NCBI GenBank assembly: GCA_900317715.1
Contig: ONHS01000002.1
Span: forward strand, 20,183-84,182
Direction of reading: 5' to 3'
Length of the DNA stretch: 64,000 nt
Origin: an uncultured Bacteroidales bacterium
Lineage (GTDB): Bacteria > Bacteroidota > Bacteroidia > Bacteroidales > WCHB1-69
How positions within the stretch are numbered: the stretch's first letter is position 1; the number at the start of each line of letters is the position of its first letter. Shown here in pieces: positions 13,759 to 62,703 of this stretch. The notes under the pieces are model-generated. The model had not been told where the DNA came from and made no database searches. It was given only the letters and a program-made list of their open reading frames with translations. A program made the position numbers and the translations under genes.

Positions 13759-13766
13759 TACTTTTG
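13759..13766 (+). promoter_or_regulatory. -7 promoter box TACTTTTG for the giant surface-protein gene
   Basis: The TAnnTTTG match lies 46 nt upstream of ATG 13812. It overlaps the track's TTG start at 13764, which is therefore rejected. Confidence 0.5.
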
Positions 13767-13811
13767 CGGCCAAAATTTTTAACAGTTACATTCGTAAAAG
13801 AAACTACCATT

Positions 13812-47427: not shown

Positions 47428-47708
47428 TGAAAGCTTCTTCCTGTTGGTATCTTGCCAATTTCCGGATTAAAACTGCCCTGTTCAAGAAAAAAGACCCTAT
47501 TATCGGTATAATCGACAAGATGTGGGGAATTATGCGGAACGAGGCATTTCCGAAGTATATAAAGATGTAGATTATGCTGTATTTAATTACTATTCAGCAT
47601 ATTACATAAAATTGTGTTTTTAACAAGAAAGTCGCTCATAAAAATGTGTTATGTTTTAAGATAGTCACTCATTTTTTTGTACTTTTGCAGCTGGATAAAA
47701 TCATCAGT

Positions 47709-49004
47709 ATGTATAGAAATGTTATAAATGAGCTGATCAATTGGAAAATGTCACCATATAGGAAGCCCTTGCTTCTGTTGGGTGCACGACAGGTAGGCAA
47801 AACGTATATATTAAAGTACTTTGGCCAATCTTTCTATAAAAATGTAGCATATATCAACTGCGACCACAACGAACGTGTAAAGGATTTGTTCACAGAGGAT
47901 TATGATATAGATCGAATTTTGCTCAGTATCAGCGCAATTACGGGAGAGACCATTATACCTGGAGAAACATTGATAATCCTCGATGAAGTGCAGGAACTGC
48001 GGCGAGGTCTCTCTTCTCTCAAGTATTTCTGCGAAAATGCACCAGAACAGCACGTATGCGTTGCAGGTTCTTTGTTAGGGGTCACGATGCGACACGGGGA
48101 GTCATTTCCCGTCGGCAAAGTGAACATCATTAAAATGTATCCGATGACTTTTGATGAGTTTTTGAGAGCCAAAGGAAAAGATCTTTTAGCTGATCTTTTG
48201 CAAAAAAGGGATTGGGACACTCTCCGAGGAACTCATACTGTATTGATTCAACTTTTGCGCGAATATTATTTTGTTGGGGGAATGCCTGGTGTGGTTTCCC
48301 TTTTCAGAGAAACAAACGATGCCAATATCGTTAGAAAGGCACAGGACGAAATACTATCCGCATACGCCAACGATATGGCAAAACACACCACTCCCACTGA
48401 AATAAAGAGGATTTCGCAGGTTTGGCGATCCATGCCATCACAACTTTCCAAGGAAAACAAAAAATTCATCTATGGTGTTGTGCGTGAAGGAGGGCGCGCC
48501 AAGGATTTCGAGCTTGCCATACAATGGCTTGTTGATGCTGGGCTAGTTCTCCGTGTACCGCGTGTGTCCACCCCTGCGATGCCCTTGAACCTGTACGAGG
48601 ATATTTCCACATTCAAATTATACCTTTTGGATGTTGGACTGTTAGGCGCCTTGGCCGGCACTCCTGCCGAACTGCTTCTGATGCCCAACAATATGGGGGA
48701 AGGGAAAGGTATGTTTACGGAGAACTATGTATGTACTCAATTAGTGGCGGGAACAGGAAGGTTGCCTTTCTACTACAGTCGCGAAAATAGTCGTCTCGAG
48801 ATTGATTTCGTTGTTCAATACGGCACGCAGATTGTGCCTGTTGAAGTGAAGGCTGAGGAAAATCTTCAGTCGAAATCCTTGAAGACCATTTTGCAAAAAC
48901 ATAAAGATTTAACAGCCGTCCGTTTTTCGATGAGTCCTTACCGTGAACAGGAAAGGATGACCAACATGCCGCTATATGGTGCAAGCGTCTGCTTCACCGA
49001 TTGA
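47709..49004 (+). CDS. AAA-family ATPase with a DUF4143-type C-terminus
   Basis: Start at MYRNVINEL. Walker A LLGARQVGKT, Walker B LIILDEVQ, C-terminal ..EIDFVV..VPVEVKA (restriction-endonuclease-like). Confidence 0.75.
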   Translation: MYRNVINELINWKMSPYRKPLLLLGARQVGKTYILKYFGQSFYKNVAYINCDHNERVKDLFTEDYDIDRILLSISAITGETIIPGETLIILDEVQELRRGLSSLKYFCENAPEQHVCVAGSLLGVTMRHGESFPVGKVNIIKMYPMTFDEFLRAKGKDLLADLLQKRDWDTLRGTHTVLIQLLREYYFVGGMPGVVSLFRETNDANIVRKAQDEILSAYANDMAKHTTPTEIKRISQVWRSMPSQLSKENKKFIYGVVREGGRAKDFELAIQWLVDAGLVLRVPRVSTPAMPLNLYEDISTFKLYLLDVGLLGALAGTPAELLLMPNNMGEGKGMFTENYVCTQLVAGTGRLPFYYSRENSRLEIDFVVQYGTQIVPVEVKAEENLQSKSLKTILQKHKDLTAVRFSMSPYREQERMTNMPLYGASVCFTD

Positions 49005-50054: not shown

Positions 50055-51635
50055 ATGCTCAAATATAAAGTATTCATAAGCAGTGTACAATCGGAGTTTT
50101 CACAAGAACGACAGCTTGTTTTTGACTTCATCCGTAATGACGAGTTGATGGGGCAATACTTTGAGCCGTTCATTTTTGAGCAGATTGCCGCACAAGATGC
50201 GAATCCTCGCCAATTATATTTGGATGAGGCTTCTTCGAGCCAGGTTTATCTCCTGTTGGTGGGAAAGAGGTATGGCAATGTTTTGCCAGACGGCATTTCT
50301 CCAACCGAGAAAGAATATCAAGCAGCAGGAGAGGGCAATGCTTGGAGAGTCGCATTCATCAGCGATTTGGACGGACAGCAACGTGAAGATGCGGAAGAAC
50401 GTTTCTTCCGAAAAGTTCAGAACGAGCTTTCATACCGTGTCTTTTCTAATCCTTCTGTCCTGGTGTCGCTGGTCAAACAATCGCTGTATGCGTATCTTAA
50501 ACACAAAGGCGTTATACAAACATTAAGTTTCGACGAACAGACCCGCGATGATGCCTCTATGGCCGATATTGATGCAACGAAAATCAAAGAATTCTTGCAT
50601 CAGGCCCGTCAAAAACGAGGGTTCCCATTGGCCGAAGACTCCGACCCAATCACGGTGCTCCAGCATCTGAGATTGTTGCGGCAGGACAAGCCCAGCAATG
50701 GAGCGTTACTAATGTTCGCCAACGACCCGCAATACTTTTTCCCCTCTGCGGTGGTCAAATGTGCGTGGTTTCTCGGCACAGAGACGGTAAAACCTATCGA
50801 AGATTATAAAACCTTCGAGGGCGGAGTGGCAGATCAAATCAGCCAAGCCACCAGTTGGGTGATGTCGAAACTGTCGGTGCGTTTTGGCCAGCGAAACGTG
50901 GAGGTGCAAAACGAGGTTGAATTTGAGATACCGCGATCCGTCATCTTCGAGACCATTGTGAATGCCGTGGCCCATCGCGACTACAACAGCACGGGGAGTG
51001 TACAGGTTTCCGTATTCCGAAATCGTATTGTGGTACGCAATCCGGGGACGTTGCCTGTAGAACTCACCAAGGCCGACTTGATGAAAGAACATGGCTCTTA
51101 TCCGCATAACCCGTACTTGGCGGAAGTCTTGTACCAGATGGGCTATATCGAGAAATACGGCACAGGCATCACAGAAAATATCCGCAGGATGCAAGAGGCT
51201 CGTCTCCTTGCTCCGGAGATAGACTTGAGCGCCGAGTTCATTACTACGATCTGGCGTGATAATGATGCAACTAATATTGGAACTAACCTTGGAACTAATA
51301 TTGGAACTAATAATGCAACTAATGATGCAACTAATGGTGCAACTAATGATGCAACTTCTAAAGATTATTTAGCTGTCAATAAGCGTATTATAGATAGAAA
51401 AGTGAAAAAGAAAGTAAGAAAAAGAATGACAGAGCAACAATTACAGGAATGCATCGTTGAGGCTTGTTATGTGGAACATTCTATTGAGGAGCTTGCTAAA
51501 CTGTTGGGAAAGTCAGAGTCACACATACGAAACCGATTCATCACCAATATGGTTGCAGACGGAATTCTTTTGCGAACCAAACCAGAACACTCTTCAGGTC
51601 AGACATACATGACAAATCCAAAACTTGACAAATAG
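50055..51635 (+). CDS. DUF4062 N-terminal domain fused to a HATPase_c_4-type ('RecG-like' putative DNA-binding) module and a C-terminal winged helix
   Basis: KVFISSVQSEFSQERQ...VYLLLVGKRYG (DUF4062-like). IVNAVAHRDYNSTGSVQVSVF.NRIVVRNPG..., HNPYLAEVLYQMGYIEKYGTGI. Low-complexity NIGTNLGTNIGTNNATNDATNGATNDAT. Confidence 0.65.
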   Translation: MLKYKVFISSVQSEFSQERQLVFDFIRNDELMGQYFEPFIFEQIAAQDANPRQLYLDEASSSQVYLLLVGKRYGNVLPDGISPTEKEYQAAGEGNAWRVAFISDLDGQQREDAEERFFRKVQNELSYRVFSNPSVLVSLVKQSLYAYLKHKGVIQTLSFDEQTRDDASMADIDATKIKEFLHQARQKRGFPLAEDSDPITVLQHLRLLRQDKPSNGALLMFANDPQYFFPSAVVKCAWFLGTETVKPIEDYKTFEGGVADQISQATSWVMSKLSVRFGQRNVEVQNEVEFEIPRSVIFETIVNAVAHRDYNSTGSVQVSVFRNRIVVRNPGTLPVELTKADLMKEHGSYPHNPYLAEVLYQMGYIEKYGTGITENIRRMQEARLLAPEIDLSAEFITTIWRDNDATNIGTNLGTNIGTNNATNDATNGATNDATSKDYLAVNKRIIDRKVKKKVRKRMTEQQLQECIVEACYVEHSIEELAKLLGKSESHIRNRFITNMVADGILLRTKPEHSSGQTYMTNPKLDK

Positions 51636-51709: not shown

Positions 51710-52792
51710 ATGCCCGCAAACAAAAACGCTGTCACGCGCTACTACATTCTCGACAAGTTGTTGGCGAACCGTTACCACAACTACTCGACCGAGGATTTGT
51801 GCCGTCTGGTCAACGAGGAGTTGGAAGAATTGAAGCCAGAAAAGAAAGAGAGTTGGCAAGTGAGCCGTCGTACCATTGAACTTGACCTTCATTATTTGGA
51901 ACACGAAAGCCCTTTTGTCGCTGATATAGAGCATTATCAGATTGATGATGTAAGTCCACGAACTCTCAAGACGATCAAGAAAAGTTGCCATCGTTATGCG
52001 GATCCATCGTTCTCCATCTTCACGCAGAAGCTTACGGATGACGAGAAACATCTGCTTGGCGAAGCTTTCACCCTCCTTGGACAATTTGATGGTCTGCCGA
52101 ATCTTGAGGGTTTGGAAAGGCTCAGGGAGAGTCTCAAAGTGAAGACTGACCGCCAGATTGTGTCGTTCACCAAGAATCCTTTGGAAGGAAAGAGTCTGTT
52201 GGGGGAATTGTTCACTGCCATCACGCAGAAGCAGGTGGTGGAGTTGCATTTCCACAAGTTCGACACGCCTGAAACAGACCGTTCGGCGGTGGTTTTCCCC
52301 TATTTGCTCAAGGAGTATAACCGTCGTTGGTATCTCATCGCTGCTGCCGAAGACACGGGCAAAATACTCAGCTTCGCCCTCGACCGTCTGGACAAGTTCG
52401 TCCCGTTGCCCGCACGTCATTATAAGGAATACGATGGAGACCTCAACGAATGTTTCGAGGACATCATCGGGGTGACGCTCATCGAAGGCAATCCATTGCA
52501 GACCATCCTCTTCTGGGTCAGCGACTATTCCAAAGATTATGTCGCCACAAAACCCTTGCACGAGTCCCAGCGGCATCATAAAGGAAAGCAGGAAAAGGAA
52601 TTGCGCCAACAATACCCGAATCTTGACGGGGGCGCGTTCTTCTCCATCGACTGCATCGAGAACTACGAGCTGATCAGGGAACTGACTTCTTTCGGCAAAG
52701 AGTTGTTGGTTCTTGCTCCGGAGAAAATGCAAGAAGTAATTATCACTAAAATAACAGATATGCTTAACAAATACCAGATGCTAAGCAAATAA
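51710..52792 (+). CDS. WYL-domain transcriptional regulator (HTH-WYL-WCX architecture)
   Basis: Start at MPANKNAVTRYYILDKLL (HTH). VVFPYLLKEYNRRWYLIAAAEDTGKILSFALDRL (WYL core). C-terminal ELLVLAPEKMQE. Confidence 0.85.
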   Translation: MPANKNAVTRYYILDKLLANRYHNYSTEDLCRLVNEELEELKPEKKESWQVSRRTIELDLHYLEHESPFVADIEHYQIDDVSPRTLKTIKKSCHRYADPSFSIFTQKLTDDEKHLLGEAFTLLGQFDGLPNLEGLERLRESLKVKTDRQIVSFTKNPLEGKSLLGELFTAITQKQVVELHFHKFDTPETDRSAVVFPYLLKEYNRRWYLIAAAEDTGKILSFALDRLDKFVPLPARHYKEYDGDLNECFEDIIGVTLIEGNPLQTILFWVSDYSKDYVATKPLHESQRHHKGKQEKELRQQYPNLDGGAFFSIDCIENYELIRELTSFGKELLVLAPEKMQEVIITKITDMLNKYQMLSK

Positions 52793-52827
52793 ATTTTTCT
52801 GCCTCGCTTTACATCTAAATTTTTTCA

Positions 52828-52835
52828 TATCTTTG
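52828..52835 (+). promoter_or_regulatory. -7 promoter box TATCTTTG at the head of the AT-rich operon
   Basis: 36 nt after the WYL stop and 42 nt before ATG 52877. Confidence 0.45.
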
Positions 52836-52876
52836 CATCGTTGACGATAAATATATTTAATAAAACTTATGGTAAA

Positions 52877-53071
52877 ATGAAACCTCTTGAAGCTATGATT
52901 CCATATTGTGGAAATTGTTCGCGTAAAATAAAGAAAGAAGGACTGTCTAAAGATGAGTATTATTGTGATGTTTTCATTGATACTCCGATGAAAGGAATTG
53001 TTACCTCAGATACAGATGGGACTTGTTGTGTAGAATTGGGAGTTTATAAACCAATTCAACAAAATAATTGA
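52877..53071 (+). CDS. Small Cys-rich protein (64 aa), possible zinc ribbon
   Basis: MKPLEAMIPYCGNCSRK...YYCDVF...GTCCVE. First ORF after the operon promoter. The track's TTG start at 52841 is unlikely. Confidence 0.4.
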   Translation: MKPLEAMIPYCGNCSRKIKKEGLSKDEYYCDVFIDTPMKGIVTSDTDGTCCVELGVYKPIQQNN

Positions 53072-53126
53072 ATAAACTTGGAAATATTGAATGAATTAAA
53101 AACTTACTTATAAATGATAATGGATT

Positions 53127-54602
53127 ATGGAAGAAAAATTTGGCTTATTAAAATTGGGCAGTGTAATAAATTTGAAAACTAATGGAAAAGGACAAAATTG
53201 CATATCAAGATTATCCCTTTTACTTGGTCGCAGAATAACATTAAAAGAAATAAATGAATTCATCGAATCGGACAGGTTTTCTCTTGAGTACATTGACAAA
53301 GATGGAAATGAAACAAAGAAAGATTCTTGCACGGGATTTCGATTCAAGTTACCATGGCAAGATGTTAGAGGGAATGACGTTTATGGTCATTTCAAAAAAA
53401 ATGGCTCCATTTTTATGGGTGTGATTTGGAGCGGAAAAAGTGGAAAAAGAAATGTAAACCTTAGAAAGCATGGACACGTTGATCAAACCAGTTGGGATAA
53501 ACTAAAAAAACTATGTGGCAATGAAATAAGTGAGAGTAGTATTGGAGATTATATTACCTCAGATATTGAATATTACAATGGCGCAGGTTACACTAAATTT
53601 CCTGATGGTACAGTGGTAACTTCGGAAACTGGAAAATTCGTTAAGTTTAATACTAGTCTTAATGTCGGAGGGGAAGTGCTGGTTGGCTGGTTTACAAAAG
53701 TTCGAGGACGTTTTGAGGGAATAAGTTGGGGAACGGAAGCGGATTTTAAATCGGCTCAAGAGTTAAGAGAACAGTTCTTTGTGGGGCGTATGGTTTTTGA
53801 TTCTATAGAGAAATGCAACATCTTTTTGGAAGAGCTTAAGGGAAAAATCATTCCTGAGCCATGGGAGTACAAACGTAAGAAAGACGATACTTTTAAAAAC
53901 CCAATATTGAAATCCTATCTACAGTTTGAATTGGATAGACTTTTCTATGAACAGGATGTGTTAAACTATCCCGATAGGATAATAACCAACGAAAGCAATA
54001 GTAAAGTATGGTTTAACACAAATCTTATTAACATATATGGAAAAGAATTGTTTCTTGTTGGCACTCTTTTAGAAATATCTAACAAGATATATATAGGCGA
54101 TCTTGAAATATCACCATCCACAATGAAAATGAGGCAGCTGGGGTTTAAATCATCAAAAAAGCCTTTGCCACCTGTGTTTTTTAAGGATATAAATGAGATT
54201 TTTTTCCATTGGGACTGGGAGATAGATCTAGATATGATAAAATCCGAACACATTATAGGAGAGCGTAAGGAGAGATTTCCGGGAAAATACCATAAGATGA
54301 CAACAGATTCTTTAGGTCGCATACTTGATTCTGCAATAGAATTAGCAAGAAGTATAGCACAACGAAACTATAAGTTTATCGTACCAATGTACTATCCTAC
54401 TGCAAATAGGATTCAATTGTTAATGCCGATATATTTAGAAACTTCTTATTTCGGTAAACCGGATTTTGCGTTAGTATTAACTCCTCATGCAAATGAAAAG
54501 TTGTATACTCCCGAAACAATACTAGGATTAGATGAAGTTTATCAGGATGCGCGGTTAATAGCAAAGCCTGAAGAATCTTGGCTTAACCCTGAGATGTTAT
54601 AA
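53127..54602 (+). CDS. Hypothetical 491-aa protein: two beta-rich N-terminal modules plus a C-terminal region that I tentatively liken to DUF3825
   Basis: Internal duplication: FRFKLPWQDVRGNDVYGHFKKNGSIFMGVIWSG vs VKFNTSLNVGGEVLVGWFTKVRGRFEGISWGT. C-terminal half: PWEY..NPILKSYLQFELDRLFYEQ...WFNTNLINIYGKELF...YQDARLIAKPEESWL. Confidence 0.6.
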   Translation: MEEKFGLLKLGSVINLKTNGKGQNCISRLSLLLGRRITLKEINEFIESDRFSLEYIDKDGNETKKDSCTGFRFKLPWQDVRGNDVYGHFKKNGSIFMGVIWSGKSGKRNVNLRKHGHVDQTSWDKLKKLCGNEISESSIGDYITSDIEYYNGAGYTKFPDGTVVTSETGKFVKFNTSLNVGGEVLVGWFTKVRGRFEGISWGTEADFKSAQELREQFFVGRMVFDSIEKCNIFLEELKGKIIPEPWEYKRKKDDTFKNPILKSYLQFELDRLFYEQDVLNYPDRIITNESNSKVWFNTNLINIYGKELFLVGTLLEISNKIYIGDLEISPSTMKMRQLGFKSSKKPLPPVFFKDINEIFFHWDWEIDLDMIKSEHIIGERKERFPGKYHKMTTDSLGRILDSAIELARSIAQRNYKFIVPMYYPTANRIQLLMPIYLETSYFGKPDFALVLTPHANEKLYTPETILGLDEVYQDARLIAKPEESWLNPEML

Positions 54603-54658
54603 TATAACAATTGTCAACTAAATAAATGTACAAATAGAAAACAACAAAATTATTATGT

Positions 54659-57600
54659 ATGAAATATCCTACAGTTTCAGAATATATAGAATCTCTTCGT
54701 GTTGCAAATGATAATCTTGCAACTTTGACGTCTTTGGAGCTTGTTCTTGGTACTGATGGAAATCCAACTTATTCGAAAGAAAACCATGGTGTTGTCTTTC
54801 GGATGAAAGATAGGGATACCGATTTAGAGTATAATGTAAAATGTTTTACTGATGAACAAGAAGGCAGAGAAACATTGTATGAGCAAATTAATAATAGTCA
54901 AGGTGTATGGTTCCCTGATGGAGTTAAATATTATGCTAACGAGCTATTTGTAGATACTGCGATTTCGGATGCTAATGAATTTCCAGTAGTTGTTATTCCT
55001 TGTTGCAAAACGACAAACCTTATTTCTTTTATCAACACAAACATTGCAAATTGCTCGCTTATCTCAAAACTTGCAGATAGTTTTAGTTGTGTTGTAGAAT
55101 GGGTTAAAGAAAAGGGTTGCTTTTGGCATGAACTAAATGTCGATTCACTTTATGTGAACGACACTGGTCATATTGTTGTTTCGGATATTGACGGACACAT
55201 TGAAACAACTAATTCTACCAAGAAAAACGATGATTTGAACGCATACCTAATTCTTCTATCGCTAAAAGCACTGTATAGGGATTCAAGTTTGTTCAATGCA
55301 AAAGACGTCAAGCCGTATATTCTCTTCGATGGGGATAATTTCACCGAGCTTCCTGCAAATGAGATTATTACAAGATTGTCGATATTAAATGATTCTGAGA
55401 TTTCATCCATAATTAGTGATGTTTTCGTAAAAATTGGACATGGCAATTCTAATGAAACGCGAAACGACTTGCAGCAATCCGAGATTTATGAAGACGGCCT
55501 AAAAATGATGGCGGAAAAGGGAAATGTTACAATGCAATTGCAGCTGGCGCGGAAATGTTGGGATAATGAAATGTATGAAGAATCATTTAAATGGTATAAA
55601 CAAGCAGCATCTCAAGAGGATGCAGATGGTTTATATGGCTTAGGATTGTGTTATCGTAATGGTTTTGGAATAGAAAAGGATTTGACAAAATCATTTCATT
55701 GTTTTCTTAATGCTTCTGAGTTGGGATTGTTGGATGCTCAATATGAACTTGCTGAAGCATATTATTTCGGATGGGGAGTTCGCAAGGATAAGACAAAGGC
55801 AATGGATTTGTATTTCAAAGCTGCTCAAAGGGGGCATGCTATGTCAGAATTTATGATTGGTCATTATCTTATGTTCAATCGTGGAGAGATTGACAGCTCT
55901 TTTGCCATTACAAGTAAACGTGATACAGTGAAGGCATTTGAATGGTTTTTGAAATCCGCTAAACAAGGTTATCATCCTGCACAACGAAGGATAGGTGCAT
56001 TCTATGAAACCGGCACAGACCCTTGTGTAAGAAATATTAGCAAAGCTATGGAGTGGTATCAAAAGGCAGCTGCCCAAGGTAATGATAAAGCCTTGTTTGC
56101 AATAGGAAGATTGTATGCCAATGGTCTTGATGAAAGAAATCCTGATAACAAGAAAGCTTATGAGTATTATTTGCAAGCGGCAAATAAAGGTCTTCGTGAT
56201 GCTCAGTTTAGGGTAGGTGTTGCATTGTTATTTGGCAAGGGGATAGAAAAGGATAAAGATGCAGCTGTTGAGTGGATTCGAAAATCTGCTGACAAAGGTT
56301 ATGCGGCGGCAAAAAAGCTTATCATTGAAATTGAATATAGTGAAGAAGTCTCTGAAGAAACGGGAACCACAGGATTAGAAATAGTATCTGCTACTATTGA
56401 CGATTATGGTGTTCTTTATAGTCAAAACGGGAAAAAACTTTTGAAATATAGTATAGAAGAAGGATTCGATAGTGATGGAATATACGGTGGTTCAATAAGC
56501 ATGTTTGATGAAGAAAGCGAATTTGGAAGCATAAAACAACAAAGTTTAAATCAATATAAAGTAAAAGAAGGGACAGAGATAATCTGTGAGAATGCTTTTT
56601 ACGAATGTGAGTCGTTGGAAAGCATATCTTTACCTTCTACGCTACATGTAATTGGGGAGAGTGCTTTTTTCGGATGTGAAAATCTCTCTTGTGTAACATC
56701 ATATTCCACTCTTAAAAGAATAGGAGAACGAGCTTTTATGGATTGTCATAGTCTAAAGTCAATTGACACTTTAGATGGTGTTGAATCTATCGGGGAGGGT
56801 GCTTTTTCTGGTTGCTATAGTTTGCACAATCTCACTTTGCCAAGTACTTTACAGAAGATAACAGGAAGTACTTTACATGGAGTAAAAAGAATCTTATCCG
56901 AATCAAAAAAATTTTTGGTGGAAGACAATTGTTTGTTAAGTTCAGATAAAAAAACACTGATATATTTTATTCAAAACGAATTAAAGACCTTTGAGATTCC
57001 TAATGGTGTCGAAATCATCGGTTCTTCTGCATTTGAAGGAGCGAATGTTAATTATTTGAAAATCCCTGAAAGTGTCAAAATCATTGGAAATTCATCATTT
57101 TCTGGATGTGCATTAAGGGAAATCTTTTTGCCAGATTCAGTAATACAAATTGGTTATTCAGCTTTTTGTGGGTGCGAAAGTCTAACGAAGGTTCGTTTGC
57201 CGAACCGATTATCTTCTATTGACATACAAACTTTTGATTCGTGTTATAGACTAACAAACATTCATTTACCTAGTTCCATTAAAGAAATTAATCATTGGGC
57301 TTTTGCAAGGACAGGACTCTCTTCTTTTTGTTTTCCTATAAATGTTGAAAAAATTGGATGGGGATTGTTTGCAGGTACTCAAATTAAAAAAATAAATTCG
57401 GAATCAGAATCAATTATTGTTAGAGACATGGCTGTTTATAGCAATCTTGGAAAAACACTATCTCAATATTATGGAAATGAAAAAAAGTTTGTGATTCCAG
57501 AAGGGGTTGAAGAAATATCCAAATTAACTTTCACATCTTATATCAAAGAAATAATCTTTCCAAAGTCAATAAAAAAACTCTGTGATATGATATGGTACGA

Positions 57601-57715
57601 CGGTACTATTCCGGAGAAAATATATGTGCACAAAGAATTCAAAAAAGTCATTCTTGAATATTTACCAGAGTATTATTATAGTCATGTATTTGTAATTGAA
57701 GATGATAGTAATTGA
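54659..57715 (+). CDS. 1018-aa cytoplasmic multidomain protein: N-terminal protein-kinase-like (divergent) domain + about 7 Sel1 repeats + BspA-type leucine-rich repeats
   Basis: No signal peptide. aa 40-190: VVFRMKD..EYNVKCF (beta3 Lys-like), CFWHELNVDSLYVNDTGHIVVSDIDGH (catalytic / DFG-like loops, non-canonical). aa 290-560: Sel1 (AAQGNDKALFAIGRLYANG, ADKGYAAAKKLI). aa 620-1000: ICENAFYECESLESISLPSTLHVIGESAFFGCENL, repeated. Confidence 0.75.
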   Translation: MKYPTVSEYIESLRVANDNLATLTSLELVLGTDGNPTYSKENHGVVFRMKDRDTDLEYNVKCFTDEQEGRETLYEQINNSQGVWFPDGVKYYANELFVDTAISDANEFPVVVIPCCKTTNLISFINTNIANCSLISKLADSFSCVVEWVKEKGCFWHELNVDSLYVNDTGHIVVSDIDGHIETTNSTKKNDDLNAYLILLSLKALYRDSSLFNAKDVKPYILFDGDNFTELPANEIITRLSILNDSEISSIISDVFVKIGHGNSNETRNDLQQSEIYEDGLKMMAEKGNVTMQLQLARKCWDNEMYEESFKWYKQAASQEDADGLYGLGLCYRNGFGIEKDLTKSFHCFLNASELGLLDAQYELAEAYYFGWGVRKDKTKAMDLYFKAAQRGHAMSEFMIGHYLMFNRGEIDSSFAITSKRDTVKAFEWFLKSAKQGYHPAQRRIGAFYETGTDPCVRNISKAMEWYQKAAAQGNDKALFAIGRLYANGLDERNPDNKKAYEYYLQAANKGLRDAQFRVGVALLFGKGIEKDKDAAVEWIRKSADKGYAAAKKLIIEIEYSEEVSEETGTTGLEIVSATIDDYGVLYSQNGKKLLKYSIEEGFDSDGIYGGSISMFDEESEFGSIKQQSLNQYKVKEGTEIICENAFYECESLESISLPSTLHVIGESAFFGCENLSCVTSYSTLKRIGERAFMDCHSLKSIDTLDGVESIGEGAFSGCYSLHNLTLPSTLQKITGSTLHGVKRILSESKKFLVEDNCLLSSDKKTLIYFIQNELKTFEIPNGVEIIGSSAFEGANVNYLKIPESVKIIGNSSFSGCALREIFLPDSVIQIGYSAFCGCESLTKVRLPNRLSSIDIQTFDSCYRLTNIHLPSSIKEINHWAFARTGLSSFCFPINVEKIGWGLFAGTQIKKINSESESIIVRDMAVYSNLGKTLSQYYGNEKKFVIPEGVEEISKLTFTSYIKEIIFPKSIKKLCDMIWYDGTIPEKIYVHKEFKKVILEYLPEYYYSHVFVIEDDSN

Positions 57716-58403
57716 GTCAAAAAGAAAGAAACCAGAAACCCTGCTTGGGGAATATCCTAATGCGGTGTTTTGTGATGTGACGAGCAAATCACCATATCTT
57801 GAATTAAGGCAATTAAGTCCGTTTTATCCATGGGGAGGTATACCTGTTAGTTTTTCACCAGGAGTTGAAGCCTCTTGTGTAGAAGCAGTATGGCAAGGAT
57901 TGAAAGTGTTTGAAAACGCTGATGTTGATACGGAATTGTTTTTAAACAACACTATGAAAGGTCTAAAACGTTCGTCACGAGTTTATGGTAAAGTCTTGGG
58001 GCACAGGAAAGGTGTTGATGGTGAAATATTACTTAATTATCATGATGCTCGTAGAAAAATATACATTCCCACATATAAGTGGATGTTGGAACATAAAGCT
58101 TTTTATACCATTGAATATTTAAGGGCTTTTTGCCAAGAAAACCCCAACGTCACTCTCGTATTATTAGATTATCAGACAAATAGCAATATTGAGGATCTAA
58201 CCAAGCCTTTGTCTCACGCATTTTTGGTTAAATCATACGTAGAGGGATTGCCTCCGTATGATGATGTAGTGATAGAGAAAACGGTTCACCATGTGGTCGT
58301 TGGGCGACGTGTTCATGAATGGCAAACAAAAGAGTATTCATTTAAGAAGCTCCCAGTGGTTGACGACAATAACAAACAATTAGCAATTGATTTCGATGAA
58401 TAG
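57702..58403 (+). CDS. NADAR-like (YbiA/DUF1768-like) protein; candidate ADP-ribose-removing antidote
   Basis: LSPFYPWGGIPVSF..VEASCVEAVWQGLKVF, compared with my recollection of E. coli YbiA (FSNFAAWPIKVDGKTWPTSEHYFQAQKF). It overlaps the upstream gene by 14 nt and the downstream gene by 8 nt. Confidence 0.5.
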   Translation: MIVIESKRKKPETLLGEYPNAVFCDVTSKSPYLELRQLSPFYPWGGIPVSFSPGVEASCVEAVWQGLKVFENADVDTELFLNNTMKGLKRSSRVYGKVLGHRKGVDGEILLNYHDARRKIYIPTYKWMLEHKAFYTIEYLRAFCQENPNVTLVLLDYQTNSNIEDLTKPLSHAFLVKSYVEGLPPYDDVVIEKTVHHVVVGRRVHEWQTKEYSFKKLPVVDDNNKQLAIDFDE

Positions 58404-59805
58404 AAGGAAGGATTACAAAGAATTTAAGCAACTTCTTGAGAAGTATAATATTACAAAGTTTTATCACTTCACAGACCATGACAATGTTGATTCTATAATC
58501 AAGAATGGTGGATTGTTCTCTTATGGTGATTGTATTAAACGCGGAATTAGAATAAACAGGCCAGGTGGGTCGGCGTTGTCGCACGAACTGGATTATAAAG
58601 AAAATTTGCAAAATTATGTTAGGGTTAGTTTATGCAAGAAACATCCAATGATGTTTACAGCAATACAGGATGAACGAATCGTAAACCCTGTGATATTGGA
58701 AATTGACACAGATGTTCTTTTTATAGAGGGTAATATTTTTTCAGATAAGAATGCGGTTCGGAAAGATTCATGTAAGGGAAAGAGTTTCGCTGATTTTAGC
58801 AGAATACATTTCAATACAGTCAAACAAAGGAACCAATTTGAGGTTGATGATGACGAGCAAGACTATTATCAGGCAGAAATACTGGTACCACATCACATCT
58901 CGCTTAACTATATTTTGAATTTGACCGATTTCCAAACATTGGATTCTGAGAGAAAAGAGAGTTGTCTTAAGATACCTTATTCTTCAGCCATTACTCGGGA
59001 AAATCCAGCTGGTATTTTCTTCATACTTAATCAATCGTATCCCACAGAAGAAAAGATAGAGTATGGAGGTGAAAAGATGTCCAAGGCAAGAGTTGAAGGA
59101 GGCATTGTTGATAAAGTGATAAACGAACTTATTTTGAGTAATACAAGTAATGGCGTCCTCAATGATAAGTATAATATTTCTGTTATTGGATATGGTGACT
59201 ATGCGTATAGTTGCATTGAAAAAGGAAATGTTCATACTTTGAAAGAGCTCCAAGATAATCCATTGTTTGTTAGAACAATGTCCAAAAAAACTAAGACACG
59301 ACAAGGAACAAAAACAATCGAGATAAAACAACCAACATGGATAAAAACTAATAGTGATGGGGATGCAAAACTATATAAAGCCCTAAATAAAGCTCGAGAT
59401 ATAATTGAGAACTGGGCAGAGGAACATGAATCGTCATACCCACCTATTGTGATACACATCACAGAATACAGATACCATGGCGCGGATGATAGTGATATGA
59501 AGCAAATGGCAAACCAAATAAAGTCCATATTTACAAAAGATGGGAATGCCTTGTTTTTCAACATCATTCTCACGGAAAAGGAAGATGCTGTTTCCGTACT
59601 ATTTCCATATGACAATCAAGCAGTTTCAGACTCATATTATGGGACGATGTATTGTTTAATGTCCAGCATTTTGCCAAAATCATTTAATCAAAATGTCGCT
59701 TGTTTTAATGAGATTGAAGATGTTTTATGTCAAAGATATGGAATAGCCTTTAATGTTAAATTCAAGGACTTATTTGATACTATACTCTCTATTATACCAA
59801 AATGA
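58396..59805 (+). CDS. DarT-like (DUF4433) ADP-ribosyltransferase fused to a vWA-like domain with a degenerate MIDAS
   Basis: N-terminus: KFYHFTDHDNVDSIIKNGGL, LQNYVRVSLCKKHPMMF, PVILEIDTDVLFIEGNIFSDKNAV, DYYQAEILVPHHISLNYILNL. These are collinear with the DarT motifs IYHITH..NL..IL, DYVPFYF, FTD.N and KQAEFLV (catalytic Glu). C-terminus: IFFILNQSYP... YNISVIGYGD... GDAKLYKALNKARDII... PPIVIHITEY..., a TerY-type vWA layout with DxSxS -> NQSYP. Confidence 0.8.
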   Translation: MNRRKDYKEFKQLLEKYNITKFYHFTDHDNVDSIIKNGGLFSYGDCIKRGIRINRPGGSALSHELDYKENLQNYVRVSLCKKHPMMFTAIQDERIVNPVILEIDTDVLFIEGNIFSDKNAVRKDSCKGKSFADFSRIHFNTVKQRNQFEVDDDEQDYYQAEILVPHHISLNYILNLTDFQTLDSERKESCLKIPYSSAITRENPAGIFFILNQSYPTEEKIEYGGEKMSKARVEGGIVDKVINELILSNTSNGVLNDKYNISVIGYGDYAYSCIEKGNVHTLKELQDNPLFVRTMSKKTKTRQGTKTIEIKQPTWIKTNSDGDAKLYKALNKARDIIENWAEEHESSYPPIVIHITEYRYHGADDSDMKQMANQIKSIFTKDGNALFFNIILTEKEDAVSVLFPYDNQAVSDSYYGTMYCLMSSILPKSFNQNVACFNEIEDVLCQRYGIAFNVKFKDLFDTILSIIPK

Positions 59806-60142
59806 ACTGGTCTTGTAAGTATAAATATTCTCTTTTGATATTTACAGAACGACACCTGAAATCACCATTTCAGACAATTCGCGACAGGTGAACTTTTTAT
59901 GACAAGAATATTTTGCAACCAGCTGTCATTTAGTGAATTATATGATTGTTTGTGGTGATTTTAGTGAACCAATCAGTCCAAACAAACATACAATCAGCAA
60001 GGCATCGCTAGGTTTTTCAACGGCGACGAGACGCTGGAGAGACAAACACCCCCCTCTTTGCAAGCCTTGCAACCCCTCCCTCATCACCCGAAATATCGTA
60101 TTTTTGCGCCGGTTAATAATTGTAAGTAAGAGTGCTCATATT

Positions 60143-60295
60143 ATGAATGATACACTACCAAAAGAAGTCCATCATCAGAAGGCGTTGTTCAGCCGGGACC
60201 TGCCTTTTAAGCCTCAATATGGCATGATGCTGTATGTCGAGGCGGGCGCGAATGAAGAGATCGACGGGTACTTTCACAAGAATATGATTGGGTAG
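60143..60295 (+). CDS. Possible small ORF (50 aa) behind a -7 box
   Basis: TATTTTTG box at 60099-60106, 37 nt upstream of the ATG. MNDTLPKEVHHQKALFSRDL.. No family recognised. Confidence 0.25.
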   Translation: MNDTLPKEVHHQKALFSRDLPFKPQYGMMLYVEAGANEEIDGYFHKNMIG

Positions 60296-60400: not shown

Positions 60401-60754
60401 ATGAACAATACTCTACGTGTTATACTGAAGGTCCTGATGGTCATCACCTGGGTTTTGATGATGGGGTGGTATATATCCCTTCTCCTCACCCTCCTGCAGG
60501 CATATCGCATGTACGGGAATATGCCCATTGGTGAAGTTCCATACTTTTCTCTGCCCATGTTCGATTTTTGTTTTGTGTTTGGATTTTTCAATTTTCTGGT
60601 GATGATATTCATGGGATTTCCTTTGAATCTTTGGAATATGGTCAATGAATTCAAGTTCAAGAAGTTCAGTACCCTTATGATTTCGGCCTGTTACATTTTC
60701 CTTGCCGTGGTATTCGTTATCATTTGGTTTTACCTTTGGTCATATATCGACTGA
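60401..60754 (+). CDS. Small 3-4-TM membrane protein upstream of vanW-like
   Basis: MNNTLRVILKVLMVITWVLMMGW... An alternative TTG start lies at 60386. Confidence 0.5.
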   Translation: MNNTLRVILKVLMVITWVLMMGWYISLLLTLLQAYRMYGNMPIGEVPYFSLPMFDFCFVFGFFNFLVMIFMGFPLNLWNMVNEFKFKKFSTLMISACYIFLAVVFVIIWFYLWSYID

Positions 60755-60779
60755 TCTCATCTTGTTTTTCACCCCAACA

Positions 60780-61595
60780 ATGAAACGGAAACTGTTTTGT
60801 GAAATATCACCTTTTACCTATCGTCTTTCGACGGAGAAGGAAATCCTGAAGCGGCATCTGAAGGATTTGTCCCAGAAGACCCTCTTTGCCAAAGAAAGAT
60901 CAACAACAGCATTGCCTGAGCTTGTTTGGCAGCACAATTCCCTTATCCGTCGTCGGTTAGGCAATGTCAATATGCAATTGCAGGAGAACAAGGCCACCAA
61001 TTTGGCTTTGGCCGTGAAACACATTGACAGACTGCTGATTCGTCCCGGCGAGACCTTCTCGGTCTGGAAGTGCATCGGCCGAACCACTAAGCGGAAGGGC
61101 TACAAAGAGGGGCTTACCATCGCGAAAGGGCAGCCGGCGCAAGGAATTGGCGGCGGGATGTGCCAATTGTCGAACCTGATACACTGGATGGTTCTGCATA
61201 GCGAGCTGACCATCACGGAGCACCATCACCACGACGGGTTGGACCTTTTCCCCGATTTCGGCCGGCAAATTCCGTTCGGCACAGGCACCAGCATCTCGTA
61301 CAACTACCTCGATTACCGGGTGAGGAACGACTCGGACAACACCTACCAACTACGGTTATGGGTGGATGAGGAATATCTCTGTGGCGAACTCCGCGCGGCA
61401 GAACCCCAACCCCACACCTTCCATATCCATATCGAGAATGAACGCTTTACCCGTGAAGACGGGGTCGTCTATCGCAACGGCGAGGTCTATCGGGACATCC
61501 TCGATCCCGCCACGGGTCGCTGTCTCGACAGCCAACTCATCCGCACCAACCACGCCAAGGTTATGTACGAATGTCCGGAGGAACTAATCGAATAA
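60780..61595 (+). CDS. VanW-family protein
   Basis: Start at MKRKLFCEISPFTY. PGETFSVWKCIGRTTKRKGY, QGIGGGMCQLSNLIHW, GTGTSISYNYLDYRVRN. Confidence 0.85.
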   Translation: MKRKLFCEISPFTYRLSTEKEILKRHLKDLSQKTLFAKERSTTALPELVWQHNSLIRRRLGNVNMQLQENKATNLALAVKHIDRLLIRPGETFSVWKCIGRTTKRKGYKEGLTIAKGQPAQGIGGGMCQLSNLIHWMVLHSELTITEHHHHDGLDLFPDFGRQIPFGTGTSISYNYLDYRVRNDSDNTYQLRLWVDEEYLCGELRAAEPQPHTFHIHIENERFTREDGVVYRNGEVYRDILDPATGRCLDSQLIRTNHAKVMYECPEELIE

Positions 61596-61919: not shown

Positions 61920-62222
61920 ATGAGCACCGAAATGATGAAAAAGGTTATTGCCGACTACTTTGAGACGCAGCCCGTCTTGAAGGCTTGGCTTTTCGGTTCC
62001 TTCGCCCGTGGCGAGGAGACCCCGAGAAGCGATGTGGATATCCTTTTCGTGCCCGACCGCTCTGGCAAACCCTTCACGCTCTTCACGCATGGCGGCATGC
62101 TGATGGATTTGCAGGAGTTGCTCGGACGCGAGGTCGATTTGGTAGAAGAAGGATCGCTCCGTCCGTATGCCGCTGAAACAGCTAACCGTGATAAAATACT
62201 GATTTATGAGAGAAAGAGCTAG
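61920..62222 (+). CDS. MNT-type nucleotidyltransferase (antitoxin of the HepT/MNT type VII TA pair)
   Basis: WLFGSFARGEETPRSDVDILF (GSxxRGxxxxxSDxD). Confidence 0.85.
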   Translation: MSTEMMKKVIADYFETQPVLKAWLFGSFARGEETPRSDVDILFVPDRSGKPFTLFTHGGMLMDLQELLGREVDLVEEGSLRPYAAETANRDKILIYERKS

Positions 62223-62703
62223 AGACAAAGGGCGTTTGGAGGATATCATTGAATATTCCGACAATGTCACGAAGTTCATCAGTGGCCACACTTTTGAGAC
62301 ATTTGTTGCCGACAAGCTTACATACTATTCCGTGATGAAGAATGTGGAAGTAGTGGGCGAAGCAGCCTATATGTTGAGCAAAGCATTTAAAAAGGCACAT
62401 TCTAAGACACCTTGGAAGACAGTTCAGGGTATGCGCCACGTCTTAGTTCACGACTATGCCAATGTTGTTGCAGCAACACTCTACGACACCGCCGTCAACG
62501 GTATCCCCGAATTACGCGAACAGGTGGAGAAGTACCTCGCAGAAACAGACTGGGAGGCATGGGCTTCCGCTCCTGACGATTTTGAAGACTCCGTTGATGA
62601 AAGTGTTGCGAAAGTCGCCCGCAACATGAAAGCCAAAGGTTATGCCGTTGGCGATATTGCCGAGATTACGGGGTTGACGGAGGAGGAGATAAGGGGATTG
62701 TAG
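62206..62703 (+). CDS. HepT-like (DUF86) toxin with a C-terminal extension of about 50 aa
   Basis: Rx4HxY motif in QGMRHVLVHDYANV. Overlaps the MNT gene by 17 nt. The tail ends AKGYAVGDIAEITGLTEEEIRGL. Confidence 0.8.
   Translation: MRERARDKGRLEDIIEYSDNVTKFISGHTFETFVADKLTYYSVMKNVEVVGEAAYMLSKAFKKAHSKTPWKTVQGMRHVLVHDYANVVAATLYDTAVNGIPELREQVEKYLAETDWEAWASAPDDFEDSVDESVAKVARNMKAKGYAVGDIAEITGLTEEEIRGL

Follow-up and report, generated by a model that had tools for sequence, protein, structure and literature searches.

Organization of the locus

We analysed a window of 64,000 nucleotides (nt), the whole stretch of DNA examined here, taken from contig ONHS01000002.1 of the uncultured Bacteroidales bacterium assembly GCA_900317715.1; all coordinates refer to this window. 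It carries five open reading frames (ORFs), g1 to g5, all on the + strand. The last three encode a protein with a degenerate kinase domain and two kinds of repeats (g3), a NADAR-like protein of the family DUF6939 (g4), and a DarT-like domain fused to a TerY-like vWA domain (g5). We consider it probable that g3-g5 (54659-59805) form a horizontally acquired three-gene conflict cassette of the Bacteroidales. The ORFs, their domains and the promoter box, with lengths in amino acids (aa) and with LRR standing for leucine-rich repeat, are as follows.

52828-52835, + strand: promoter box TATCTTTG, a Bacteroidetes-type -7 box (TAnnTTTG) ahead of g1
52877-53071, + strand: g1, 64 aa counted from the ATG, with 5 Cys
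53127-54602, + strand: g2, 491 aa
54659-57715, + strand: g3, 1018 aa
54659-55513, + strand: N-terminal degenerate protein-kinase domain of g3 (about aa 1-285), whose homologues have Pkinase/ABC1 hits
g3, about aa 290-580, + strand: Sel1 repeats (Pfam Sel1, 1.5e-48)
g3, about aa 620-1010, + strand: BspA-type LRR_5 repeats (Pfam LRR_5, 1.5e-64)
56617-57684, + strand: hypervariable LRR_5 cassette within g3, with no nucleotide match to the related locus L001
57702-58403, + strand: g4, 233 aa
58396-59805, + strand: g5, 469 aa
58462-58920, + strand: DarT domain of g5 (aa 23-175; Pfam DarT, 8.8e-28)
58975-59778, + strand: vWA domain of g5 (aa 194-461; PADLOC TerY, 1.8e-34), with a degenerate metal ion-dependent adhesion site (MIDAS)

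The segment 52793-59805 has a guanine-plus-cytosine (GC) content of 34.7%, compared with 48.9% upstream and 46.2% downstream, which agrees with the AT-rich drop described in a first-pass annotation made from the sequence alone. That annotation had also proposed an operon layout, and the ORF coordinates bear it out: five same-strand ORFs with gaps of 55 nt (g1-g2) and 56 nt (g2-g3), overlaps of 14 nt (g3/g4) and 8 nt (g4/g5), and a box at 52828 that starts 36 nt past the stop codon (52792) of a WYL regulator gene. The small Cys protein listed as the first product is likewise found, at 64 aa with 5 Cys. The box TATCTTTG is the sole + strand intergenic TAnnTTTG between the WYL stop and 59805, with none in the g1-g2 and g2-g3 gaps on that strand; the motif is enriched window-wide (53 matches vs 36 +/- 6.6 expected). 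Scans of the window for sigma-70 promoters and terminators gave no signal above chance. A single g1-g5 transcript in the window strain is plausible, because there is only one promoter box and the genes are tightly spaced.

Conservation of the cassette across the Bacteroidales

Related loci were collected in two independent samples. A DarT-vWA profile matched 199 stretches in GTDB species genomes and a DUF6939 profile matched more than 557 metagenome stretches; 80 loci were fetched from each, and most synteny counts below refer to the resulting set of about 165 fetched related loci (labelled L001 and onwards). The order kinase-type gene, DUF6939, DarT-vWA was found in nearly all of the 80 genome loci and in nearly all of the 80 metagenome loci. 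In a typical locus, one to four genes with a kinase domain like that of g3 precede DUF6939, which is followed by DarT-vWA; the genes share a strand and often overlap. Nearly all of the hosts belong to the Bacteroidales and include Prevotella/Segatella copri, Bacteroides, Parabacteroides distasonis, Muribaculaceae, Alistipes and rumen metagenome-assembled genomes (MAGs), Prevotellaceae included. In view of this synteny, chance adjacency of g3-g5 was rejected. The co-occurrence expected in the first-pass annotation holds for the three distal genes, which recur across the Bacteroidales, but not for the set of five, since g2 (53127) was found only in L001 and L086.

The closer relatives of the window cassette form a small group, referred to below as the window clade, as opposed to the main clade that holds most loci. 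Window-clade relatives at 65-77% identity lie behind a DUF6261 gene or between a ClpP gene and an AbiEii gene, and they have 32-36% GC in hosts of 46-48% GC. Across the loci in general, the upstream genes vary (DUF6261, ClpP, or genes on the opposite strand). Because the neighbourhoods differ among the window-clade relatives, we take g3-g5 as the mobile unit. Four MAGs labelled Flexilinea, Sphaerochaetaceae, Clostridium and Opitutae (L037, L057, L067 and L068), from the 'cleanbin' set of one study, have modules typical of the Bacteroidales, for which contamination during binning is a likelier explanation than genuine spread.

g5 encodes a DarT1-like domain fused to a TerY-like vWA domain

The N-terminal domain of g5 scored 97.8 bits against Pfam DarT (cut-off 22.5), and the profile of the g5 family matched E. 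coli C7 DarT1 (8BAQ) at 1.2e-9 vs 0.059 for Thermus DarT2. H24, D66, M86, N119 and E161 of g5 are invariant in the family alignment and S78 is nearly so; E161, N119, M86, D66 and S78 align with E152, N104, M71, D54 and S63 of DarT1. In DarT1, N104 contacts guanine, and DarT2 carries His at that position (PMC11543638). Judged by its sequence, the g5 domain resembles DarT1 and has Asn where the base is contacted. The AlphaFold2 (AF2) model of g5 (predicted local distance difference test score (pLDDT) 89.7; predicted template-modelling score (pTM) 0.87) gave DarT fold hits at the N-terminus and vWA/integrin I hits at the C-terminus. The MIDAS motifs of the window protein read NQSYP and TEY, vs DxSxS and TDG in the main clade. 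The earlier reading of g5 as DarT fused to vWA is upheld by Pfam DarT, by PADLOC TerY and by the AF2 fold search.

g4 encodes a NADAR-like protein of the family DUF6939

The g4 product belongs to Pfam DUF6939 (2e-64), a family for which the homologue search returned 4717 protein clusters and in which 12 of 30 members gave weak NADAR-DarT1 hits. The AF2 model of g4 (pLDDT 87.6) had a single meaningful fold match in the PDB, the DarT1-associated NADAR of Geobacter lovleyi (8BAT, prob 1.0), to which it is about 18% identical in the fold alignment. A Foldseek search of the DUF6939 model against the BFVD viral structures gave weak, uninformative matches only. In the family alignment, K68 of g4 is invariant and E61 and Q65 are nearly invariant, and the spacing E61-x6-K68 is the same as that of E88 and K95, the catalytic Glu and Lys of the E. 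coli C7 NADAR (PMC11543638). Sequence and model together indicate that DUF6939 is a divergent NADAR fold keeping the E-x6-K catalytic spacing, and by analogy g4 is predicted to be an ADP-ribosyl-DNA glycohydrolase acting as the antidote to the DarT domain. The NADAR-like label of the first-pass annotation accordingly stands, on the weak NADAR-DarT1 hit, the fold match and the motif; the fold searches that it had suggested led to NADAR for g4 as they did to DarT and vWA for g5.

DUF6939 adjoins this DarT subfamily in every architecture examined. Window-clade DUF6939 proteins have a C-terminal extension of about 30 aa that is not present in the main clade (g4 aa 186-233), with a beta-hairpin predicted at aa 190-214.

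g3 encodes a probable pseudokinase with repeats that appear exchangeable

Homologues of the N-terminal 289 residues of g3 gave Pkinase/ABC1 hits, with the aligned motifs AVKCF, HGDLKPDN and DYDG. In the window protein the catalytic loop is WHELNVDS, with Glu in place of the catalytic Asp, Asn in place of Lys and Ser in place of Asn, and the segment past the DYDG motif is missing 22 residues; K61 and the Asp of DxDG are retained. The protein matches PADLOC STK_OB at 2.3e-4 only, and it does not show the feature of an active Ser/Thr kinase (VAIK Lys, HxDxKxxN, DFG-like Asp). Because the catalytic-loop residues are changed and 22 residues are missing, g3 of the window clade reads as a pseudokinase or a very atypical kinase. 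The kinase-domain homologues and the Pfam Sel1 and LRR_5 matches confirm the first-pass description of a kinase-like protein with Sel1 and BspA-type LRR repeats.

The N-terminal sequence of g3, MKYPTVSEYIESLRV, opens the kinase-like domain; no hydrophobic leader could be seen in it by eye, and Pfam found no secretion-associated domain in the protein. The role of a secreted BspA-like adhesin was rejected on the N-terminal kinase-like domain, the lack of a visible leader and the placement in an operon with cytoplasmic enzymes.

The repeats were compared with those of L001. At the nucleotide level, L001 is 98.95% identical to the window in 54609-56616 and 98.8% identical in 57685-60286, and the interval 56617-57684 has no match. 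At the protein level, aa 1-653 of g3 are about 99% identical to the L001 protein, and the rest of the LRR_5 region is roughly 40-45% identical. An LRR recognition-domain cassette thus appears to have been exchanged by recombination between otherwise near-identical cassettes.

The main clade is a TerY-P derivative, and the window clade has lost its phospho-signalling parts

The TerY-P triad was reportedly predicted by Anantharaman and colleagues in 2012. It consists of a TerY-like vWA protein, a PP2C phosphatase and an STK (serine/threonine kinase), for which PADLOC holds models (PDLC02222-02224; PMC11090510). In a passage of PMC11090510, Gao et al. 2020 are cited as having reported TerY-P as a stand-alone anti-phage defence.

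Clustering of neighbouring genes revealed a fourth conserved gene in 67 of the 80 genome loci (e.g., L076:11464-12276), which comes immediately after DarT-vWA and encodes a PP2C-like protein of about 270 aa. It carries the motifs VSDGAGG, YGDS and ASDA, and all 19 members tested match PADLOC PP2C (best E 1.7e-15); there was no Pfam hit, and an HMMER profile of it found nothing meaningful among PDB sequences. In L076, a locus of the complete S. copri HDD05 genome (NZ_CP152352, 2487728-2509059), the kinases match STK_OB at 2.7e-50 and 1.7e-54, DarT-vWA matches TerY at 1e-46 and the PP2C-like protein matches PP2C at 1e-11. Main-clade kinases pass the Pfam Pkinase threshold and have canonical motifs; their C-termini carry LRR_5, Sel1, FGE-sulfatase, Fib_succ_major, WG repeats or a second kinase domain. 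Because the kinase, DarT-vWA and PP2C genes match the three PADLOC TerY-P models, the main clade is, by sequence, a TerY-P triad whose TerY has an added N-terminal DarT, together with a DUF6939 gene.

The resemblance to TerY-P lies in the C-terminal domain of g5, which matches TerY at 1.8e-34 in the window and at 1e-46 in the main clade, in the kinase part of STK_OB, matched by main-clade kinases at 1e-50 to 1e-54, and in the main-clade PP2C gene after DarT-vWA, with genes on one strand and close or overlapping. In contrast to TerY-P, the TerY protein here bears an N-terminal DarT and always has a DUF6939 gene next to it, and the kinases, often as two to four tandem paralogues, have in place of an OB fold or zinc ribbon a recognition domain such as LRR_5, Sel1 or FGE-sulfatase. 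The window clade differs further in lacking PP2C and in its degenerate MIDAS and kinase.

These losses were traced in an alignment of 78 DarT-vWA proteins, 71 from the main clade and seven from the window clade (the window and L001-L006). The His and Glu motifs of DarT are invariant in all 78. The MIDAS motifs DxSxS and TDG are present in 71 of 71 main-clade sequences; all seven window-clade sequences have NQSYP and either TE[YF] or SC in their place. A PP2C gene follows DarT-vWA in 66 of the 71 main-clade loci, and the other five, most of them on short contigs, have no detected PP2C ORF. No PP2C homologue was found by tblastn anywhere in the window, and the gene is absent from L001-L006 and from L081-L088. 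The canonical kinase loop is absent from the window and from the five window-clade sequences that match the N-terminal domain of g3, and the main clade is canonical here; this pattern of loss recurs in L081-L088, the window-clade loci from metagenomes. The window clade is therefore best described, from these alignments, as a phospho-dead derivative in which PP2C, the MIDAS and the catalytic Lys and Asn of the kinase have been lost (the Asp is Glu in the window).

The TerY-P affinity raised in the first-pass annotation is borne out by the PADLOC match of g5 to TerY and by the main-clade kinase and PP2C matches. It knew of no named system with this composition. The window set was not filed as TerY-P, because three of four features fail (PP2C, MIDAS, active kinase) and only the TerY-like vWA is present, but the wider family, with PP2C as fourth gene, is a TerY-P derivative, and the composition therefore does have a named relative. 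The degenerate kinase loop, the degenerate MIDAS and the PP2C gene had been overlooked.

Pairwise dN/dS (the ratio of nonsynonymous to synonymous substitution rates) was 0.05-0.12 for DarT, 0.05-0.10 for DUF6939, 0.09-0.14 for Sel1, and 0.14-0.32 for LRR, and in the pseudokinase and the MIDAS-less vWA it was 0.15-0.30 and 0.10-0.16, respectively, all of them rough values that count against our interpretation to the extent that dS is saturated in many pairs. All domains appear to be under purifying selection, and with ratios of 0.05-0.32 in every domain the genes do not appear to be decaying. In keeping with this, g3 is about 1000 aa long and intact in every window-clade locus, over a range of 31-99% identity of the kinase-like domain.

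Direct DarT fusions, vWA-free pairs and viral DUF6939 genes

An exhaustive profile search yielded 4654 representative proteins, of which 1116 had E <= 1e-30. Full-length DarT-vWA makes up only about ten of the proteins matched; most carry the same DarT subfamily in other architectures. Among the fusions scanned were DarT with LRR_5, with Sel1 and LRR_5, and with FGE-sulfatase, at either end of the protein (P0268, P0270, P0272, P0273, P0296 and P0299), so that the sensor domains fused to DarT are the same ones as are found on the kinases. Many further architectures of the subfamily, of 220-1137 aa, have partner domains unassigned to families. Two non-vWA architectures (P0082 and P0084) also adjoin DUF6939, one of them in a mobile-element setting with ParA, primase and RadC genes. 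Because the pairing exists without vWA, DarT-DUF6939 is taken as the basic pair and the TerY-P layer as one of several controls.

Such pairs invite a simpler explanation, that the window cassette is a plain DarT/DUF6939 toxin-antitoxin (addiction) pair on mobile DNA and that the vWA and pseudokinase-repeat genes of the window clade are decaying TerY-P leftovers with no part in sensing or defence. The mobile-element context of a DarT-DUF6939 pair free of vWA and kinase fits this explanation, as does the foreign GC content of the cassette. The loss of PP2C, the MIDAS and key kinase residues in the window clade, together with a downstream accessory gene that is truncated in the window, could mean that the regulatory layer is vestigial, and this tells against a sensor-gated toxin. 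A decaying gene would not be expected to have its full length of about 1000 aa at every locus of the window clade, to keep the low dN/dS found for the pseudokinase and the MIDAS-less vWA, or to have its LRR region replaced between near-identical strains; in addition, the 14-nt overlap of g3 and g4 probably implies translational coupling. We consider the addiction pair unlikely, and favour the sensor-gated cassette.

DUF6939 homologues with intact motifs were also found on ten viral contigs from IMG/VR (L166-L175; 42-53% identity). They are short (178-196 aa), and on nine of the ten contigs there is no DarT, kinase or PP2C gene near DUF6939. In L173 the gene (5914-6474) has a major head protein gene and homing endonucleases as neighbours; the L169 contig, with its DUF6939 gene at 5980-6570, contains ORFs of phage families. 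The phage protein AdfN is an orphan NADAR that neutralises DarTG1 (PMC11257639). The viral DUF6939 proteins are like AdfN in being short and in occurring without DarT, kinase and PP2C in large viral contigs, once beside a major head protein gene, and by this analogy they may serve counter-defence. They differ from AdfN in being absent from GenBank phage genomes, and some of the contigs are possibly giant-virus or misclassified DNA. This difference weakens the counter-defence proposal: one contig is labelled as a giant-virus MAG, several are not confirmed as phage, and tblastn of g4 and of two large viral-contig ORFs against GenBank phages found no match, because of which the phage origin of most of the contigs is unconfirmed.

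Upstream and neighbouring genes

Three further features flank the five ORFs.

50055-51635, + strand: up1, encoding Pfam DUF4062, HATPase_c_4 (RecG-C-like) and an HTH-like region
51710-52792, + strand: WYL regulator gene (Pfam WYL 4.5e-11, WCX 3e-5; PADLOC WYL 1.7e-19)
60143-60295, + strand: 5' remnant of an accessory gene (50 codons), which follows g5 as an intact gene in L001 and L086

The g1 product has no family match in Pfam, PADLOC, NCBIfam or PHROG, and its homologues are confined to L001 (88%) and L086. The C-terminal part of g2 (aa 237-485) is DUF3825 (Pfam 4.6e-47); the protein also matches phrog_11623, a phage family of unknown function (4.2e-20), has no match in the PDB, and has homologues only in L001 and L086 among the fetched loci. 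NCBIfam added nothing for g1-g4. The duplicated beta-rich modules suggested for the N-terminal half of g2 were not recovered, as a BLASTP comparison of half against half gave E = 39, with no duplication at the sequence level. From this distribution, g1 and g2 are lineage-specific accessory genes.

Only in the window and in the near-identical L086 is the operon immediately preceded by a WYL gene. In L003 an up1-like gene separates the upstream WYL gene from the module, WYL genes are distant in L049, L074 and L116, and L001 has none despite 99% identity to the window over g3-g5. The WYL gene resembles regulators of the BrxR/CapW class in combining WYL and WCX domains and in ending 36 nt before the promoter box, but its adjacency is not conserved, being lacking in nearly all relatives and in L001; on present synteny it is a sporadic neighbour and not a conserved component.

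The first-pass annotation had taken the WYL-headed arrangement of five genes as the system. The proposition that this arrangement is itself the functional unit, with g1 and g2 essential, gains from the single promoter box and tight spacing, which suggest one g1-g5 transcript, from the occurrence of the order WYL-g1-g2-g3-g4-g5 on the metagenome contig L086, and from the presence of g1-g2 in L001. L086 and L001, however, belong to near-identical lineages (98-99% over g4 and g5), whereas L002-L006, L081-L085, L087, L088 and all main-clade loci are without g1 and g2, the upstream genes differ among loci, and L001 is without WYL. We regard a five-gene unit as very improbable, and the claim of a WYL-headed five-gene system was not sustained. 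WYL, g1 and g2 are local additions outside the g3-g5 system that probably share its transcript or its regulation in the window strain.

Proteins related to up1, with SLFN_AlbA_2, HATPase_c_4 and HTH domains, are encoded inside the operon directly upstream of DUF6939 in L011, L012, L013, L026, L038 and several metagenome loci, overlapping DUF6939 by 4 nt in L011, L013 and L026. In total, more than 15 loci encode up1-like proteins (SLFN_AlbA_2 or DUF4062, with HATPase_c_4 and HTH) within the module or next to it, a pattern that marks up1 as a recurrent yet optional neighbour outside the core.

Downstream of g5, only the first 61 residues of the 385-aa L001 protein align with the window by tblastn (88% identity), and homology ends at 60286; a deletion or rearrangement therefore took the rest of the accessory gene. 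The remnant has its own TAnnTTTG box at 60099. A C-terminal domain of about 135 aa is found both in the L001 protein and in the DUF1810 proteins encoded after PP2C in main-clade loci, and assignment of the remnant as a DUF1810 gene was rejected, since this C-terminal domain is all that the L001 homologue has in common with them. DUF1810-containing proteins follow PP2C in at least ten genome loci (e.g., L011:12237-13472; L079:12283-13218). ADP-ribosylglycohydrolase (ARH) genes lie downstream of the module in four loci; L014, L031 and L071 are among the loci with ADP-ribose-related genes. An RVT_1 and HRDC gene pair, possibly a group II intron or retron-like element, stands beside the module in L051, L045, L037 and L067, and in L078:6800-8700 it lies between the kinase gene and DarT-vWA. 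Other genes near the modules include AbiEii, HepT, YhcG nuclease and reverse transcriptase (RT) genes. In the window, the cassette is flanked by a HepT-like RNase toxin gene (62206-62703), a VanW-like gene (60702-61595) and an AAA_14 + DUF4143 ATPase gene (47646-49004), which look like a small defence or accessory islet beside housekeeping genes. The window also contains a single ORF of 4705 aa at 13764-27881 (+ strand).

These surroundings bear on another explanation, in which the cassette is a growth or replication switch of the host's own, applying reversible DNA ADP-ribosylation when Sel1/LRR repeats bind an environmental or host ligand, with no antiviral role. A reversing enzyme that is always present would suit reversible physiological control; DarT/DarG governs replication and stationary-phase adaptation in M. 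tuberculosis (PMC12170906); and, among proteins from gut Bacteroidales, the Sel1 and BspA-type LRR ones usually figure in discussions of host interaction. A housekeeping switch is hard to reconcile with the patchy, strain-variable distribution, the foreign composition and differing insertion sites, with one to four diversified sensor paralogues per locus and a swapped LRR region, or with neighbours such as AbiEii, HepT, YhcG nuclease and RT genes. The main clade, moreover, matches the three HMMs of TerY-P, the anti-phage system cited above, orphan DUF6939 genes lie on viral contigs, and g3, with no leader visible by eye, would not be expected to bind an extracellular ligand. A physiological switch is thus decidedly improbable, more so than the addiction pair, and an anti-phage role for the sensor-gated cassette is likely by analogy.

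Proposed mechanism and comparison with DarTG1

Drawing on the domain identities, the synteny, the correlated losses, the signal of purifying selection and the LRR swap, we favour, with somewhat more confidence than doubt, a TerY-P-derived cassette in which a sensor gates a DarT toxin that is paired with a NADAR-like antidote. By analogy with the DarT1/NADAR literature, the DarT domain of g5 would ADP-ribosylate guanine in single-stranded DNA and so stall replication, and g4, encoded just upstream of g5, would remove the ADP-ribose mark, holding basal toxicity in check and allowing recovery. From its architecture, g3 would be a cytoplasmic protein that senses an invader component through the variable Sel1 and LRR_5 repeats and controls DarT via the vWA domain. 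In the ancestral form, represented by the main clade with its active Ser/Thr kinases (one to four paralogues), intact MIDAS and a PP2C that resets the switch, a phospho-switch would gate DarT. In the window clade, gating would occur by direct binding of pseudokinase and vWA, not by phosphorylation, because PP2C, the MIDAS and the catalytic-loop Lys and Asn of the kinase are gone. The combination of sensor, toxin and antidote put forward in the first-pass annotation fits the sequence data, in that g3-g5 co-occur in nearly all related loci and DarT is fused to sensor domains elsewhere.

The toxin-antidote pair can be compared with DarTG1, reportedly described by LeRoux and colleagues in 2022. 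The similarity is that the g5 DarT is closest to E. coli C7 DarT1, keeps E, N, M, D and S at the aligned catalytic positions, and is obligately paired with a gene for a protein of predicted NADAR-like fold with E-x6-K. DarTG1 is composed of the DarT1 toxin and the NADAR (DarG1) antitoxin (Schuller et al. 2023, PMC11543638). The window cassette differs from it in that the partner is a DUF6939 protein below the NADAR-DarT1 threshold and about 18% identical to the G. lovleyi NADAR, in that the partner gene lies upstream of the toxin in the vWA-fused family, in that the toxin carries a fused vWA domain (LRR, Sel1 or FGE-sulfatase in other members), with a kinase/phosphatase layer added, and in its NCBIfam toxin_DarT score, far below the cut-off. 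A literature search found no description of a DarT-TerY/vWA fusion, of DUF6939, or of DarT with kinase and PP2C, although the 2012 TerY-P paper may mention such fusions; searches on DUF3825 and on TerY with ADP-ribosyltransferase returned no relevant paper.

Several observations weigh against this mechanism. The g4 protein scores 17 bits against Pfam NADAR-DarT1 (threshold 27), its fold match to 8BAT is modest (TM 0.45-0.47, E = 5e-3), and an HMMER profile of DUF6939 found nothing meaningful among PDB sequences. For g5, the NCBIfam toxin_DarT score is 41 bits against a cut-off of 150, and no g5 residue could be assigned as the counterpart of DarT1 R52; DarT could act on RNA or protein instead of DNA. 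The PADLOC matches are at the level of individual hidden Markov models (HMMs). The DNA target, the antidote activity, sensing, gating and the anti-phage role are all read from sequence and analogy.

A more far-reaching proposal, which we put forward tentatively and with rather less confidence than the cassette mechanism, is that the cassettes represent a receptor-kinase innate immunity of gut and rumen Bacteroidales, in which arrays of cytoplasmic kinases with swappable LRR, Sel1 or FGE-sulfatase sensors would recognise components of phages and use the vWA/PP2C switch of TerY-P to release a fused DarT1-like enzyme acting on DNA by ADP-ribosylation, with DUF6939 as antidote and its capture by viruses as counter-defence.

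Implications

We know of no effector or mechanism described for TerY-P so far. The physical fusion of a TerY vWA domain to a recognisable toxin leads to the hypothesis that the kinase/phosphatase/vWA triad is an effector-gating switch, and the DarT fusion offers toxicity and DNA ADP-ribosylation as readouts. If true, the receptor-kinase reading would give TerY-P an effector and a testable mechanism. DUF6939 gains a predicted function as a reversing enzyme of the NADAR type, in which case the macrodomain and canonical NADAR partners of DarT would be joined by a third kind. The hosts include Segatella copri, Parabacteroides distasonis, Bacteroides, Muribaculaceae and rumen Prevotellaceae, in which phage defence is poorly charted. 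The presence of LRR, Sel1 and FGE-sulfatase sensors both on the kinases and on DarT itself provides a natural system for the diversification of pattern-recognition modules. The phospho-dead window clade separates the catalytic from the scaffolding roles of the kinase and, if the receptor-kinase reading is true, would document a shift from phospho-signalling to pseudokinase scaffolding within one immune system.

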